Shown here: positions 7,808-57,120 of the stretch, in pieces
Position numbering within the stretch: the stretch's first letter is position 1
Layout of the letters: each line of letters opens with the position of its first letter
Assembly: GCA_007125155.1 (NCBI GenBank)
Contig: SLDR01000028.1
Location: forward strand, 1-57,120
From: Candidatus Campbellbacteria bacterium
GTDB lineage: Bacteria; Patescibacteriota; Minisyncoccia; Phycocordibacterales; CSBR16-193
DNA length: 57,120 nt
Direction of reading: 5' to 3'
Translations under genes and position numbers: made by a program
Notes under the pieces: generated by a model
What the model saw: only the letters and a program-made list of their open reading frames with translations
What the model was told of the DNA's origin: nothing
The model's database searches: none

Positions 7808-8338
7808 TCAAAGAATATTTTCATTCATTATCTCTTTTATACGGGATGATATCTTTTTGTATTGTGTTTTTTTCATGCTTTTGAAGCTCATATCGTACTT
7901 CTCGTCACCCCAACTGAAATAACAACCCGCGGCCATATCGCAATCAGCTTTAAAAATTAAAAAAGCTCTTTCATCAACATTTTTTTTGATCCATTTGCCA
8001 ATAAATACAACATCCTCACTCCTGGGTTCTACAGGCGTTTGCAAAAAGAAAACAGGGCATTTTTTAAAATCATCTTCAATTTCTGAAAGAATATCGTATG
8101 GATCTTTAGAAGATAGGATCTTTTTGAACAAATCTTCACCCCATTCTTTTACCGCTTCCTTATTATCATCAGTTATCCGTTTACCAACACAGAATCGATC
8201 GAATCTATCCAGAACCGGTAGATGTTTTTGTCGATCTTTATACAATAGAAATTCAATAAATTCCTTAAGCAAAGAAAAACGACGATGAAAATCAGTGTAA
8301 GTATATGTATTGGAAAAAATAATATCAGAAATTCTCAT
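7808..8338 (-). CDS. atpH: ATP synthase delta (OSCP) subunit, divergent
   Basis: 176 aa, positioned between b and alpha. The C-terminal pattern LIFKADCDMAAGCYFSWGDEKYDMSFKS resembles the delta ..D..IIGG....G...D.S motif. AGGAGGGGG lies about 12 nt upstream. Confidence 0.6.
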   Translation of the reverse strand: MRISDIIFSNTYTYTDFHRRFSLLKEFIEFLLYKDRQKHLPVLDRFDRFCVGKRITDDNKEAVKEWGEDLFKKILSSKDPYDILSEIEDDFKKCPVFFLQTPVEPRSEDVVFIGKWIKKNVDERAFLIFKADCDMAAGCYFSWGDEKYDMSFKSMKKTQYKKISSRIKEIMNENIL

Positions 8339-18298: not shown

Positions 18299-18326
18299 TT
18301 GATATTTTAAAAGTTCATTGTATAAT
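18299..18326 (+). promoter_or_regulatory. Promoter for the RNase P RNA gene
   Basis: TTGATA (18299-18304), a 16 nt spacer, then TATAAT (18321-18326). The RNA 5' end GGGTTCGC begins about 6 nt downstream. Confidence 0.5.
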
Positions 18327-18351
18327 GTAACGGGTTCGCATCGGGTAGTCG

Positions 18352-18427
18352 CCCCGCTCTTTTAGTTTTCGTAATATATCGAAATAAAAAAGCACTTTCG
18401 ATATCAACGAAATTTAAAAGAGCGGGG
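18352..18427 (+). repeat. Hairpin module copy 1 (P3 position)
   Basis: ccccgctcttttagttttcgtaatatatcgaaataaaaaagcactttcgatatcaacgaaatttaaaagagcgggg, 76 nt. Confidence 0.9.
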
Positions 18428-18490
18428 AGGAAAGTCCGAACACCCATTCGTTCATTTAAACGTCTAAAATGGTAGCGGGTAACACCCGTC

Positions 18491-18553
18491 CCCCGCTCTT
18501 TTAGGCCCTTTTAAAGTACGTTCACTTCAAAAAAAGGGTTTAAAAGAGCGGGG
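18491..18553 (+). repeat. Hairpin module copy 2 (P9 position)
   Basis: It has the same arms, ccccgctcttttag...ttaaaagagcgggg, with a different interior (gcccttttaaagtacgttcacttcaaaaaaagggt). Confidence 0.85.
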
Positions 18554-18665
18554 AGAGGTGCGAGCAGTGACGCCAAAGCCGAAAGGCGGAGGGTCCCCTT
18601 GGGGGATAATTCTTCGGAAACGGAGAAGTGAAACGGCTAAATCCTTACCCGGGTGCAAGGCCGTG

Positions 18666-18761
18666 CCCCGCTCTTTTAGGTTTCGTTAAACCGATAAATA
18701 AATAACTCCGATTAAAAAAGAAATGTCAGAATTGTTACTAACGAAATTTAAGAGAGCGGGG
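18666..18761 (+). repeat. Hairpin module copy 3 (P15-P17 region)
   Basis: ccccgctcttttaggtttcgt...acgaaatttaagagagcgggg, 96 nt. It shares the extended arms with copies 1 and 4. Confidence 0.85.
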
Positions 18762-18811
18762 AGTGCCGCAAGAGGTGAATGGTAACATTCATCCCAGATA
18801 AATGGCTACCG

Positions 18812-18887
18812 CCCCGCTCTTTTAGGTTTCGTAATATATCGAAATATAAAAGCACTTTCGATATCAACGAAATTTAAAAGAGCGGGG
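18812..18887 (+). repeat. Hairpin module copy 4 (between the P2 3' strand and the P4 3' strand, the P19 position)
   Basis: 76 nt. It differs from copy 1 at 2 positions in my alignment. Confidence 0.9.
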
Positions 18888-18926
18888 TACAGAATTCGGC
18901 TTATAGATGCGAACCTTTAAAACATG

Positions 18927-18963
18927 AAAGCCTCTCGTTAATTAACGAGAGGCTTTCTTTTTA
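18927..18963. terminator. Bidirectional hairpin terminator between rnpB and gatB
   Basis: gaaagcctctcgttaattaacgagaggctttc followed by ttttt. The stem is about 14 bp. Confidence 0.75.
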
Positions 18964-40737: not shown

Positions 40738-40750
40738 AGGAGTTTTTCTG

Positions 40751-40835
40751 TGCCGTGGGGGAGAGTTGAACTCCCACTCCCTTTAAGGGAACTGCGCCCT
40801 GAACGCAGCGCGTCTACCAATTCCGCCACCACGGC
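40751..40835 (-). tRNA. tRNA-Leu (anticodon CAG), long variable arm
   Basis: The reverse complement is GCCGTGGTGGCGGAATTGGTAGACGCGCTGCGTTCAGGGCGCAGTTCCCTTAAAGGGAGTGGGAGTTCAACTCTCCCCCACGGCA. The anticodon loop is TTCAGGG. CCA is not encoded. Confidence 0.9.
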
Positions 40836-54985: not shown

Positions 54986-55179
54986 TTTAAAACGATCAAG
55001 TCAAATAAAATATATTGAACGTTCCTTTATTTTATCAATTTATATCAGGTTTTCAAAACAAGTGAGCAACAACCCAAAAAAAACAACACGGGTATTTATA
55101 TCTTCTTCCATCTTAAGAACGAGACTCGGAAGCATTCTCCGCTCTAACATTGGTTTGAGCGCGTGAAGAAGGTATTGTG

Positions 55180-55253
55180 TGCGCGTGCCAGGATTTGAAC
55201 CTGGGACCTCGTCATTATCAGTGACGCGCTCTAACCAACTGAGCTACACGCGC
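55180..55253 (-). tRNA. tRNA-Ile (anticodon GAU)
   Basis: The reverse complement is GCGCGTGTAGCTCAGTTGGTTAGAGCGCGTCACTGATAATGACGAGGTCCCAGGTTCAAATCCTGGCACGCGCA. CCA is not encoded. Confidence 0.9.
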
Positions 55254-55364: not shown

Positions 55365-55688
55365 CAAAACCGCTTTTTATTTTGTTTCGTTCCCTATGCC
55401 GGTAAATTACCGGCTTTCTCTCCATTTTTACCATGAAGAGTAAGGTGGTCTCAGTTTAAAGCCCGAGACCGAGGCTTTGGCAAACACTGTTTAAATAACA
55501 ATGTTTGAACGACCTGTCACTTTATACCGACCCAGTAGGCGAACGGTATAAAGAAATCTTTCGATATATTCCACGACCAGCTTCCGCTAGCCGTGCCTTG
55601 TTACGACTTCGTCCCTGTTACTGAGCTTACCTTCGGCCCCGCTAGGCGAGGACTTCGGGTACTCCCAGCTCCCTTGACGTGACGGGCG

Positions 55689-56579
55689 ATTGTTTACCAT
55701 AAGTTTTTGGCATTGACGTTCCCACTGTACGTGCGGATTTCCCGCATACAGCGAGCTCTAGTGCATTTGTTGCTTTATCTTATAAATTTTTTGCATTCCT
55801 TTAACAGTCAAGTGTTCTTTCCTTCCAATTATATGAATCAATTTACAGAAAAGCTCAAAATCTTTTTGTTTAGAAGCAAGTTTTGGTTTGTTCTTTTTAA
55901 AGAACGGAATGATCTTTTCAACTAAATCAATCCTATTAAAAACCTCATATCTGTAACAGTCTTGGTGATTTTTTCGTCTGTCTTTCTGGAAATATACTTT
56001 TCCACAATCAAAGTATCTTTGTAATTGATAAAGTATATCTTTATCTTTCTCAACAAACTTAACGTAAAACTTTGGTTCAATACGAACGCGTCTTTTTCGT
56101 TCATTTGAATCATTTAAGTTCTTAACATAAACAGTAAAACTTCCTTCACCATCCACAAGACCGACAATGTAACTTGAATCTAACATTAGTTCACACTAGA
56201 GAGAGTCCTTCCCGATCACTATTAATAAAATAAAAAATAGTGGCCGGTACTATGACTCAGCTGACTCCTGACGCTGCGTTAAACTTAATTATACCACTAA
56301 CTGCAAAAACAGATGTGGACAGCTTCAGGTCTCCCCGGGTTACGCATATCTCTTTTCCAAACATCCAATATAAGCTTTTTTGATCTTCCCTATCCTCACC
56401 ACCCAATGATAGGTCGATCTGCTTGCCGTTTTAACGGCTACATACAGGCTGTTCTTTGCTTTCAGATCCTCCGCCATCAACCTCGCGATCAATGACTATC
56501 CTTCAGCTACGCCCCATAGACGAATGGGGGAGCAGATTTTAACTGCTTAGATATATGCGCTGCCGGGCGCTTTTTCATG
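55689..56579 (-). mobile_element. ~0.9 kb intervening sequence/intron in 16S at the position equivalent to E. coli C1400/G1401
   Basis: The 5' exon ends ..CTTGTACTCAC(C) and the 3' exon resumes (C)GCCCGTCACG. The canonical sequence is CTTGTACACACCGCCCGTCA. The boundary is ambiguous by 1 nt. Confidence 0.8.
55758..56186 (-). CDS. Single-motif LAGLIDADG homing endonuclease encoded inside the 16S intervening sequence
   Basis: 142 aa: MLDSSYIVGLVDGEGSFTVYV.., consistent with the homodimeric I-CreI-like class. Confidence 0.85.
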   Translation of the reverse strand: MLDSSYIVGLVDGEGSFTVYVKNLNDSNERKRRVRIEPKFYVKFVEKDKDILYQLQRYFDCGKVYFQKDRRKNHQDCYRYEVFNRIDLVEKIIPFFKKNKPKLASKQKDFELFCKLIHIIGRKEHLTVKGMQKIYKIKQQMH

Positions 56580-57120
56580 GTGAGTACAAGACTCGAGAAC
56601 GTATTCACCGCTGCGTTGATGATCAGCGATTACTAGCGATTCCAACTTCATGAGGTCGAGTTTCAGACCTCAATCCGAACTGGGGCGACTTTTCTTAGGA
56701 TTGGCTCGGGGTTTCCCCGTCGCGACCCGTTGTAGTCGCCATTGTATCACGTGTGTAGCCCAGGGCGTCAGAGGGTCATGCTGACCTGGCGTCATCCTCT
56801 CCTTCCTCCCCGCCCTCTAAACACTAAATTTGCATTAATGTTCAAAGGGCGAGGCAGTCTCGTCTGACACGTATAACAGACGATGAGGGTTGCGTTCGTT
56901 ACCCCACTTAAGGGAACAGTTCAAACCACGAACTGACGACGGCCATGCAACACCTGCCTATGTGCCCGAAGGCCCCCTCCGTTTCCGGAAGAGTTCACAT
57001 AGGTTTCAAGCCCTGGTAAGGTTCGTCGCTTACTGTCGAATTAAACCACATGATCCACCGCTTGTGCGAGTCCCCGTCTATTCCTTTGAGTTTTAAGCTT
57101 GCGCTCGTACTACCCAGGCG

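Follow-up and report, generated by a model that had tools for sequence, protein, structure and literature searches.

What is shared by four hairpins that carry the same stem at four places in one RNase P RNA gene, and what keeps their sequence alike? Few universal ribozymes have been studied as thoroughly as RNase P RNA, in which peripheral helices normally covary freely and independently of each other. The window analysed here is a stretch of 57,120 nucleotides from a Candidatus Campbellbacteria bacterium (assembly GCA_007125155.1, contig SLDR01000028.1, positions 1 to 57,120, forward strand), in whose rnpB gene such hairpins had been described in a sequence-only reading. That reading offered repeated invasion by a palindromic element, a repeated protein-binding module and a set of double-strand-specific processing sites as explanations. 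Its coordinates and sequences all check out; its explanations are weighed below.

The RNase P RNA gene

The segment at 18333-18917 (forward strand, ~585 nt) comes from a CPR bacterium of the Paceibacteria type and is a genuine bacterial RNase P RNA gene of type A (RF00010). The core had been called intact, and a search with the Rfam model agrees: the alignment to RF00010 is full length (model positions 1-367, 91.4 bits, E = 2.1e-28) and includes P1-P4, CR-I, CR-V, P8, P15 and P18. P1 joins 18333-18342 to 18906-18915 with 10/10 positions complementary, P2 is intact, and so are CR-I (18427-18438, forward strand, GAGGAAAGUCCG), which is overlapped by the last G of the 3' arm of the first hairpin, and CR-V with the 3' strand of P4 (18889-18906, forward strand, ACAGAAUUCGGCUUAUAG). 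Because of the four inserts the score falls under the Rfam gathering score of 100, and the gene is missed at that threshold; an orthologue that lacks modules (L130) serves as a natural control and reaches 113.8 bits. The rnpB genes of two other relatives (L003 and L129) score merely ~49 bits each, since their interchangeable module arms derail the covariance-model alignments. Without the four hairpins the core is ~273 nt (277 alignment columns), and across the alignment of 10 species it is 83-96% identical.

The gene is preceded by a sigma-70-type promoter (18299-18326, forward strand; TTGATA-16 nt-TATAAT, 11/12) and by a motif, ...TTGTATAAT..., that is kept 5' of rnpB in all relatives. It is followed by an intrinsic terminator (18926-18957, forward strand; a 14-bp stem, then a T run), which is bidirectional and common to the convergent gatB. 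In syntenic relatives with the far flank recovered, rnpB adjoins gatB and then pheS or a DUF192 gene. J15/16 reads GGGGAGU (...GCGGGGAGUGCC), and the GGU motif of L15 that pairs with the tRNA 3'-CCA, which is not needed for membership in type A, was not found in the window rnpB; the tRNA-Ile of the window has no encoded CCA. There is no GNRA L9 loop in the window rnpB, where the second hairpin forms P9, or across the clade that carries the module.

The four hairpins

The arms CCCCGCUCUUUUA/UAAAAGAGCGGGG are common to the four hairpins, the 5' arm occurring at four sites with its inverted partner at each, and all hairpins lie on the forward strand. Copy 1 (18352-18427, 76 nt) is helix P3 and consists of 14 bp, a U·U mismatch and 6 bp. 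Copy 2 (18491-18553, 63 nt) is helix P9, with 22 contiguous bp; its upper stem, GGCCCUUUU/AAAAGGGUU, does not have the CGUU/AACG top found in other copies. Copy 3 (18666-18761, 96 nt) occupies the P16/17 position distal to P15 and has 23 contiguous bp, one A>G change in its 3' arm giving a U·G pair. Copy 4 (18812-18887, 76 nt) has 21 contiguous bp and stands at the P19 position, between the 3' strand of P2 and the 3' strand of P4 in the RF00010 alignment. These placements agree with the sites proposed earlier. Repeat finding pairs copies 1 and 4, described there as nearly identical, over 78 nt with 97% identity. The helices at P3, P9, P16/17 and the P19 position are thus one paralogous, rnpB-specific module made of ~22 bp and a variable interior.

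Each hairpin is stable on its own, with folding energies of -35 to -40 kcal/mol and z-scores of -6.7 to -11. In the whole window, hairpins with arms of at least 18 nt are limited to the modules and the rnpB terminator. Long-range pairing between the interchangeable arms had been considered conceivable, but the minimum free energy (MFE) and centroid folds of the full 586-nt RNA retain the four local hairpins, and the MFE fold retains P1 and P2 as well; local folding should win because in every hairpin the 3' arm follows its 5' arm directly during transcription. The window modules (63-96 nt) contain no ORF, and a search of Rfam gave no intron hits in them; nor did it assign the module to any known RNA family, the sub-threshold matches being spurious ones to microRNA-type hairpins. 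A K-turn (a three-nucleotide bulge flanked by tandem sheared G·A pairs) or other protein-binding motif was looked for and is absent from the conserved 22 bp, which form a continuous Watson-Crick/G·U helix. The internal loop above this helix in copies 1 and 4 (AAU/CA) contains no G·A pairs and shows no conservation.

Distribution and descent

In ten gatB-syntenic relatives, whose GatB proteins are 70-81% identical to that of the window, the same module is found at the same sites (P3, P9, P16 and P19) in 0-4 copies per gene. The module is old in a roughly family-level clade, and the most parsimonious reading of a GatB neighbour-joining tree (unbootstrapped) places it at P3, P16 and P19 in the common ancestor. 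The catalytic core can do without it, to judge by the 0-4 copies in relatives. Sites without a full module in relatives carry hairpins of 20-29 nt, and modules are lost by truncation to a ~12-bp hairpin. Turnover is fast in at least one pair: L129 and L126 have cores that are 96% identical, and they differ at all four sites. The pattern as a whole needs several losses or gains.

Modules are inherited vertically, site by site, as seen between L002 and L128 at P19 (41/54) and P16 (23/25) and between the window and L002 at P16 (copy 3, 50/71). They have also occasionally been copied or converted between sites through their identical arms. The interiors of the P3 and P19 modules of the window match at 45/46 aligned positions, and P16 and P19 of L003 share a 25/28 tract; recombination between copies, raised earlier as a possibility, has left its mark here. 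The P3 interiors of L002 and L131 match at 38/43 positions, a similarity that is incongruent with the species tree, and modules have probably been exchanged between lineages too.

Sequence constraint

The anatomy of the module was derived from 22 copies. Base pairs 1-13 are nearly invariant (6/286 cells deviate, mainly to wobble pairs), bp 14 is G·U in 19/22 copies, bp 15-18 covary, and bp 19-22 are a conserved CGUU/AACG beyond which the interior is variable. Mismatches occupy 12/88 cells at bp 15-18 versus 1/286 at bp 1-13. The helix is ~22 bp long in nearly all copies and has 20-23 contiguous bp in most; among P3 copies, the majority contain a mismatch within bp 15-17. Over the module, 96.1% of cells are paired and eight pairs have changed on both sides; 0/500 shuffles reach these values, and slid controls are 36-61% paired. 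Other helices of the same RNAs are far more variable at 83-96% core identity, with deviating cells numbering 17/100 in P1, 12/70 in P2, 15/70 in P12b and 8/80 in P18.

The truncated hairpins provide a control within the same genomes. Those that keep only the arms (P9 of L002, L128 and L003; P3 and P19 of L126) drift by compensatory change, even between sisters whose GatB proteins are 91% identical, while full modules in those genomes are invariant. Perfect arms are also present where no conversion partner exists, in the single-copy lineages L131 (P3 only) and L132 (P19 only); in L133 the P19 arms are perfect as well and P16 is short, with P3 and P9 unrecovered. Homogenisation is not pervasive, because P3 copies of several species retain a site-specific C3>U.

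Bp 1-13 are invariant, bp 14 is a conserved G·U, bp 15-18 covary freely and bp 19-22 are conserved, a pattern which suggests that the sequence of the module, beyond its pairing, is under purifying selection at the RNA level. A conserved G·U is impossible as an inverted-repeat feature of duplex DNA, so the constraint would act on RNA. Selection of this kind would imply a trans-acting factor that reads the full 22 bp, and it strengthens both the protein-site and the double-strand-processing ideas of the sequence-only reading.

Possible functions

The account that we put first, tentatively, is that the module is an rnpB-specific dsRNA element read by a trans-acting factor, most likely leading to RNase III-type excision as in the intervening sequences (IVS) of rRNA. 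A double-strand-specific RNase of the RNase III type would recognise the conserved 22-bp helix, the upper stem and interior would be cut out post-transcriptionally, like the intervening sequences of 23S rRNA, and the GC-rich basal stubs of the arms (~11-12 bp) together with P1-P4 would hold the pieces of the RNase P RNA together. The ~12 bp left in the evolutionary truncations are roughly the remnant that would be expected from a mid-helix cut. That the modules are dedicated excision sites, and the mature RNase P RNA a fragmented ribozyme of up to five pieces, is a more doubtful proposition. RNase III is not known to require as many as 13 invariant base pairs, and processing alone would therefore not explain the conservation of the arms. 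The mismatches in most P3 copies at bp 15-17 also speak against this account, as do the variable copy number, the widespread hairpins of unrelated sequence and the rarity of sequence-specific reading, all taken up below. Pfam scans of 34 ORFs of the 57-kb window (four of them without a match above threshold) gave no rnc, dsRBD, rnpA or L7Ae, and a regular-expression search of its six-frame translation found no RNase III signature; as the window is only part of the genome, both results are uninformative.

A possible though rather improbable alternative is that the hairpins are functionless expansion segments. Template switching, or gene conversion over short homologies, would duplicate them within rnpB, their peripheral position would make them tolerable, and only pairing constraint and conversion between copies and lineages would keep them alike. 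Hairpin duplication of this kind is not peculiar to the module: paralogous hairpins of unrelated sequence are present in 11/101 other Patescibacteria rnpB genes (~10%), among them L035, with 100% identical hairpin copies, and L008, with a 120-nt element in three copies. These point to a general copy-paste mutation for which no dedicated factor is needed. The visible recent conversion, the fast turnover between L129 and L126 and the dispensability of the modules all suit this alternative. It does not account well for the invariant arms of the single-copy L131 and L132, for the P3-specific C3>U, for the contrast in mismatches between bp 15-18 and bp 1-13, for the quick drift of truncated copies in the same genomes, or for the conservation of the bp 14 G·U and the 22-bp length.

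It is unlikely, but nearly as likely as RNase III excision, that the mature RNA retains the modules and that a single protein, either a chaperone or a new RNase P cofactor, binds to each of them. Such a protein would replace lost RNA tertiary contacts, in the way that L7Ae binds several K-turns of archaeal RNase P RNA. Constraint on bp 1-14 and 19-22, with the conserved G·U, would be expected of a binding site, as would the disappearance of that constraint once the upper module is deleted, and the clade lacks the GNRA L9 loop. The conserved part, however, is a continuous Watson-Crick/G·U helix that offers no bulge, K-turn or loop motif, and for a protein to read a fully Watson-Crick helix sequence-specifically is unusual. 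Close relatives, a module-less species included, differ in copy number and in the sites occupied, and variation from 0 to 4 copies is more to be expected of a dispensable or selfish element than of a site for an integral cofactor. A protein gene linked to rnpB was considered as the module reader and set aside: no candidate adjoins the gene, the neighbours all being housekeeping genes (pheST, gatB, obg, MYG1, GH15, RNR and DUF192), in a 57-kb fragment that is uninformative on this point.

Confinement to rnpB

Invasion by a dispersed palindromic mobile element (MITE-, REP- or RPE-like), in which a transposase binding the 13-14-bp terminal inverted repeats entered rnpB repeatedly, was the first explanation offered by the sequence-only reading and is now largely refuted and very improbable. 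The search for copies outside rnpB took in the window, which is the 57 kb of this genome covered, related DNA and species representatives, and no credible copy turned up elsewhere. With up to one mismatch the 13-nt arm occurs eight times in the window, all within rnpB; with up to two it occurs 10 times, against 1.68 +/- 1.19 expected (0/100 shuffles reach 10), the two additional matches, at 8139 and 8368, being unpaired. In ~1 Mb of fetched Patescibacteria DNA, scanned with up to one mismatch, 53 arms lie in rnpB and two lone matches lie outside, and a relaxed hairpin search of all fetched loci (up to three mismatches per arm) gave no credible copy outside rnpB. No copies were found outside rnpB in ~130 kb of clade DNA. 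A scan of one representative genome per species (185,579 species) returned three loci, all in rnpB, and the IMG/VR, phage and plasmid collections gave no matches. A 16S h40 hairpin appeared faintly arm-like in the relaxed search and is treated as probable chance.

The structure of the insertion sites is equally unlike that left by a mobile element. The flanks of the four copies (GUCG/AGGA, CGUC/AGAG, CGUG/AGUG and ACCG/UACA) contain no direct repeat and thus no target-site duplication, the arms directly abut the conserved core, and they align to the model's own P3, P9 and P16 stems with no native stem beneath. The copies are old and orthologous at each site. Conserved terminal inverted repeats around a variable interior, a patchy occurrence among relatives and the incongruent P3 interiors of L002 and L131 would suit such an element, but the bp 14 G·U makes the repeat asymmetric at the DNA level and is not a DNA-level feature. 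Also compatible with mobility is the rnpB of L049, from another Patescibacteria lineage: its P16/17 insert contains a GIY-YIG ORF (E = 3.7e-15) and shares its arms with ORF-less hairpins of the same gene. Related genera conserve the sequence of the module, which is absent elsewhere in the DNA searched, and it therefore looks more like a recognition or processing site than a jumping element.

An assembly artefact (repeat collapse or chimera in this metagenome-assembled contig), for which one might cite two Logan contigs (L133 and L135) that end in or next to rnpB and mark the region as hard to assemble, can be dismissed for practical purposes: an independent NCBI assembly (GCA_003565365.1, PXCH01000043.1, a contig that differs in length) has the same rnpB with all four hairpins and one SNP, orthologous modules are present in at least nine other assemblies (NCBI, ENA, Logan), and rnpB is full length with P1, P2, CR-I and CR-V in place.

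Significance

A single sequence-conserved dsRNA module stands at up to four structurally unrelated positions of RNase P RNA and is kept across genera, which would imply a reader: a nuclease, a protein cofactor or a recombination system. Were the modules excised, this would be a naturally fragmented bacterial RNase P RNA, the first to be assembled from fragments, and a tractable model for CPR insertions in stable RNAs; the phenomenon of rRNA intervening sequences, and that of CPR stable-RNA insertions, would extend to RNase P. Were they retained and bound, they would point to a new bacterial RNase P-associated protein. Hairpin copy-paste within rnpB recurs in Patescibacteria, and as a mode of structured-RNA evolution it appears to be undescribed. 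There is a practical side as well, as the gene lies under the Rfam threshold, the arms derail covariance-model alignments and rnpB, or the DNA beside it, is where two assemblies break off.

Comparison with known systems

REP/BIME, Correia/NEMIS and Rickettsia palindromic elements and MITEs are dispersed palindromic units, and those of Rickettsia can lie inside genes at permissive positions. Like them, the module is a palindromic unit of ~60-100 nt whose inverted ends are conserved and whose centre varies; unlike them, it is found in one gene only, has no target-site duplication, is inherited vertically and replaces whole helices where they would interrupt them.

Vioque reportedly described, in 1997, STRR heptanucleotide repeats in helix P12 of the RNase P RNA of heterocyst-forming cyanobacteria. 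Both cases have repetitive sequence tolerated in a peripheral rnpB helix, but the STRR sequences are short tandem repeats in a single helix and, unlike the modules, are also abundant elsewhere in the genome. In archaea, L7Ae/Rpp38 binds multiple K-turns (P12, P16) of RNase P RNA, so that one motif is repeated at several peripheral helices, as here; the module differs in being a regular helix without a K-turn, its host is bacterial, and its partner protein is hypothetical.

The intervening sequences of bacterial 23S and 16S rRNA (Salmonella, Leptospira, Campylobacter and others) are excised by RNase III without re-ligation and are similar in several respects. The module likewise has a near-perfect stem of at least 20 bp, standing where a peripheral helix of a stable RNA would otherwise end in its terminal loop, a sporadic distribution, conserved stems with variable interiors, and signs of conversion and lateral exchange, and the ORFs of some rRNA intervening sequences have a counterpart in the GIY-YIG insert of L049 rnpB. 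Here, however, the host is RNase P RNA, up to four copies stand in one RNA of 585 nt, the arms are conserved far beyond the known needs of RNase III, and excision is putative.

Brown et al. (2015), as cited in PMC9698310, reported both protein-coding insertions and introns that splice themselves from the rRNA genes of CPR bacteria. That structured RNA genes tolerate inserts is equally apparent from the window's own 16S gene, which has a ~0.9 kb insertion with a LAGLIDADG ORF, and from the GIY-YIG ORF of L049 rnpB; the window modules differ from such insertions in their size, in carrying no ORF and in having no intron-like fold.

Lui, Nielsen and Arkin (2021, PMC8172020) reported that CPR RNase P RNAs are diverged, have 'large extensions of helices' and fall below Rfam thresholds, and that the L15 motif for tRNA CCA is missing in about two-thirds of CPR. 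That paper, the sole relevant one in an incomplete literature search, does not mention repeated or paralogous helices, and no published description of a repeated hairpin module in rnpB was found, in keeping with the earlier impression that the arrangement had not been described. The window rnpB resembles the RNAs of PMC8172020 in scoring below the Rfam cut-offs, in its extended helices and in lacking the L15 motif. It differs from them in that the extensions are 3-4 copies of one conserved 22-bp module, shared across genera.

Results

The RNase P RNA gene (rnpB) of the window is authentic: with an E-value threshold it matches the Rfam bacterial class A model RF00010 over its full length (1-367; 91.4 bits, E = 2.1e-28). 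The sequence-only reading of 18332-18917 agrees with the DNA; P1 is complementary at 10/10 positions, and repeat finding locates four instances of the 5' arm CCCCGCTCTTTTA with an inverted partner after each, the first and fourth copies being 97% identical over 78 nt. Alignment to RF00010 bears out the positions that had been proposed for the four hairpins, namely P3 (18352-18427), P9 (18491-18553), P15-17 (18666-18761) and between the 3' strands of P2 and P4, the P19 position (18812-18887). The arms align with the P3, P9 and P16 stems of RF00010 itself and so are those helices, not insertions above a native stem. The gene is preceded by a sigma-70-type promoter at 18299-18326 (TTGATA-16-TATAAT) and followed by an intrinsic terminator at 18926-18957. 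Folded singly, the hairpins reach -35 to -40 kcal/mol (z -6.7 to -11), and the minimum free energy fold of the whole RNA retains all four local hairpins with P1 and P2, against the long-range arm pairings that had been thought conceivable.

The 13-nt arm with at most one mismatch occurs eight times in the window, always within rnpB; allowing two mismatches raises this to 10 matches vs 1.68 expected, and 0 shuffles reach 10. The same gene, with one SNP, is present in GCA_003565365.1, an independent assembly of this species at NCBI; this essentially excludes an assembly artefact. The neighbouring genes are pheT, pheS, gatB, obg and a MYG1-family gene; the best matches of GatB are Patescibacteria/Paceibacterota labelled Campbellbacteria and Taylorbacteria, and the organism is a CPR bacterium.

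The hairpin module is an rnpB-specific, clade-conserved, paralogous unit of ~22 bp of double-stranded RNA. In a clade sample of ~11 species, rnpB adjoins gatB in every syntenic relative recovered, with GatB 70-81% identical to that of the window and rnpB cores, hairpins removed, 83-96% identical. The window has the module at P3, P9, P16 and P19; among rnpB loci fetched from other Patescibacteria (L-numbers), L124 (= L001) has it at P3, P9 and P19, L002, L003, L128 and L129 at P3, P16 and P19, L131 at P3 only, L132 at P19 only, and L133 at P19 with a short P16, its P3 and P9 not being recovered from a contig that ends within the gene. L126 has arm-only 12-bp hairpins at P3 and P19; its P9 and P16 hairpins have arms of another family (CCCGCUCCACUUCU). 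L130 has zero modules and four unrelated AU-rich hairpins (20-27 nt); this natural 'insert-deleted' control scores 113.8 bits, exceeding the Rfam cut-off, and the module is dispensable for the rnpB core. When mapped on an unbootstrapped neighbour-joining tree of GatB, module presence is most simply explained by an ancestor that would have carried modules at P3, P16, P19 and possibly P9, followed by several truncations or losses.

Modules undergo conversion, truncation and loss. Interiors are orthologous per site (L002/L128 P19, 41/54 matching; L002/L128 P16, 23/25; window/L002 P16, 50/71), so the copies are old and vertically inherited. Recombination between copies, earlier thought conceivable, is seen in the window P3 and P19 interiors (45/46) and in an L003 P16/P19 tract (25/28), both of them recent non-reciprocal events. 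The P3 interior of L002 resembles that of the distant L131 (38/43) and not that of its sister L128, suggesting exchange between lineages or replacement, and L129 and L126 differ at all four sites with 96% identical cores.

Over 22 module copies, bp 1-13 are almost invariant, with 6/286 cells deviating: four are wobbles (C>U three times, A>G once), a single U-A>A-U change is fully compensated, and one G>U is terminal. G·U stands at bp 14 in 19/22 copies, bp 15-18 vary and covary (GU/AU/GC and UA/CG), bp 19-22 are conserved as CGUU/AACG, an A, mostly unpaired, follows at position 23, and the helix is ~22 bp long in nearly all copies. By pair counting, over cells that are not phylogenetically independent, 96.1% are paired and eight pairs show changes on both sides; 0/500 shuffles reach these values, and slid registers are 36-61% paired. 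Other helices of the same RNAs are 5-10 times more variable (deviating cells: P1 17/100, P2 12/70, P12b 15/70, P18 8/80). The truncated arm-only hairpins compared (P9 of L002, L128 and L003; P3 and P19 of L126) carry substitutions that compensate one another, even between sister lineages whose GatB is 91% identical, whereas full modules in the same genomes are unchanged. The single-module L131 and L132 keep perfect arms though they have no gene-conversion partner, and their interiors and bp 15-18 have diverged. The truncated-versus-full contrast and the perfect single-copy arms argue that the sequence itself is selected, beyond pairing; the conserved G·U is an RNA-level feature, since an inverted repeat acting as duplex DNA would be symmetric there. 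We infer that the module sequence is probably under RNA-level constraint. Restricted to this clade is a short form whose stem of 12-13 bp ends in CUUUA-NUAG-UAAAG (L126/L127 P3 and P19; L002/L128 P9); it drifts in its lower stem by compensatory change, which full modules do not, and may be either a deletion product or the ancestral state.

A scan of 185,579 species, each represented by one genome, with both arms required 36-66 nt apart, returned only three loci, all within rnpB of other Patescibacteria. Across ~1 Mb of fetched Patescibacteria DNA, arms with at most one mismatch lie 53 times in rnpB and only twice elsewhere, lone and unpaired; a relaxed hairpin search (up to three mismatches per arm) found no credible copy beyond rnpB, and IMG/VR, phage and plasmid collections gave zero matches to the module. 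In the 57-kb window, which is the part of this genome covered, no hairpins other than the modules and the rnpB terminator have arms of at least 18 nt, and no target-site duplication surrounds the window modules. The dispersed MITE/REP-like element offered in the sequence-only reading is thereby essentially excluded. Elsewhere, a hairpin of L048 (CCUGCACCUUUUA...) lying after CR-I inside rnpB recurs just 3' of the gene as a terminator-like hairpin, and L060 has long AT-rich palindromes on both sides of rnpB and none within it, so rnpB hairpins of some lineages do have relatives outside the gene.

Paralogous rnpB hairpins are a general phenomenon in Patescibacteria. An unbiased scan of metagenomes, using 22 nt of conserved core sequence, yielded 120 further Patescibacteria rnpB loci (L004-L123), none with window-type arms; insert lengths run from ~7 to several hundred nt at P9, P16 and P19. 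Outside the window's clade, 11/101 distinct complete genes have paralogous hairpins of their own at two or more sites, with lineage-specific, unrelated sequences and, in the folded examples, stems mostly of 17-25 bp. Copies lie at P9 and P16 in L035 (66 nt, 100% identical) and L025, and at P3 and P16 in L112; L094, L081 and L086 are further such genes, and L008 has a 120-nt three-hairpin element in three copies (P3, P16, P19). The 295-nt P16/17 insert of L049 (locus coordinates 560-850), also present in L082 and L103, encodes an 85-aa GIY-YIG nuclease domain (PF01541, Pfam E = 3.7e-15); the arms on either side of it, CCCCCCACCA, are common to two ORF-less hairpins of the same gene (at P3 and after CR-I). 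The L008 element belongs to a separate structured family of ~120-150 nt with three hairpins, also at P19 of L029 and L100 and P16 of L046, with the pattern CCAAUUUUGU...ACAAAAUUGAGC.UCCCGAG...CUCAGGG...CGAUUUUGC.CCACCU..GGUGGGCAAAAUCGG; its L008 P3 and P19 copies are 97.5% identical, and it matches no Rfam family.

The 16S rRNA gene of the window appears to have a ~0.9-kb insertion close to the 3' end (region 55594-56590, minus strand): helix 44 drops out of the Rfam match at ~56586, and the 3'-end motif AAGTCGTAACAAGG, which is conserved, is at 55594-55609. Between these two points are a LAGLIDADG endonuclease ORF of 142 aa (55758-56186; Pfam E = 1.8e-19) and, at 56205-56305, a group II intron D1-D4 match that is weak (33.2 bits, below the cut-off of 35); this is typical of insertions in CPR rRNA. 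Helix 40 (56805-56851, minus strand) is expanded into a hairpin of 47 nt (CCUCGCCCUUUGAACA...UGUUUAGAGGGCGGGG) with AGGAAGG after it; 10/13 positions at the hairpin base agree with the rnpB arm, in a GGGG-AGGAA context as at P3/CR-I, a likeness that is probably chance or native h40 sequence. tRNA-Leu(CAG) (40750-40835) was found by ARAGORN and is unlisted by Rfam at the gathering threshold. tRNA-Ile(GAU) (55179-55253, minus strand) does not encode its 3'-CCA (…GCGCA followed by CAC), and the rnpB J15/16 strand (18757-18768) reads GGGGAGU, without the GGU motif that pairs with CCA; both fit the CPR trend of RNase P RNAs often lacking the CCA-binding motif (Lui et al. 2021, PMC8172020).

Discussion

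According to Lui et al. 2021 (PMC8172020), RNase P RNAs of CPR bacteria often fall below Rfam thresholds and either lack helices or show 'large extensions of helices'; this paper, the sole relevant one from a limited literature search, makes no mention of repeated helices. Two genuine rnpB genes, L003 3130-3693 and L129 4534-4962, score only ~49 bits because the covariance model pairs one module's arm with another's. Interchangeable arms are thus an annotation pitfall, and RF00010 at the Rfam curated (gathering) threshold misses the window rnpB. Logan assemblies break inside rnpB just 3' of P9 (L133) and at window 18928 (L135), consistent with de Bruijn assembly failing at the internal repeats or at the palindromic terminator.

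From the pattern of sequence conservation, we put at nearly even the chance that a trans-acting reader of the module exists. A functionless copy-paste expansion, its copies kept alike by conversion, is doubtful; it is hard to square mainly with lineages that have a single copy and with the difference between full and truncated modules. The protein-binding module of the sequence-only reading, if retained for that role, is less probable again, standing close behind excision like that of rRNA intervening sequences (IVS). Such excision, akin to the double-strand-specific processing also proposed there, is our favoured reading, held tentatively and, taken by itself, unlikely: the upper stem and interior of the module would be cut out of the RNA. 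The classic substrate of RNase III in bacteria is a long duplex that runs uninterrupted for two helical turns, a structure that stable RNAs normally avoid. We favour IVS-like excision for this substrate type, for evolutionary truncations that retain ~12 bp, roughly the remainder of a mid-helix cut, and for the likeness to rRNA IVS: like these, the module replaces a terminal hairpin, is patchily distributed, and has conserved stems and variable interiors.
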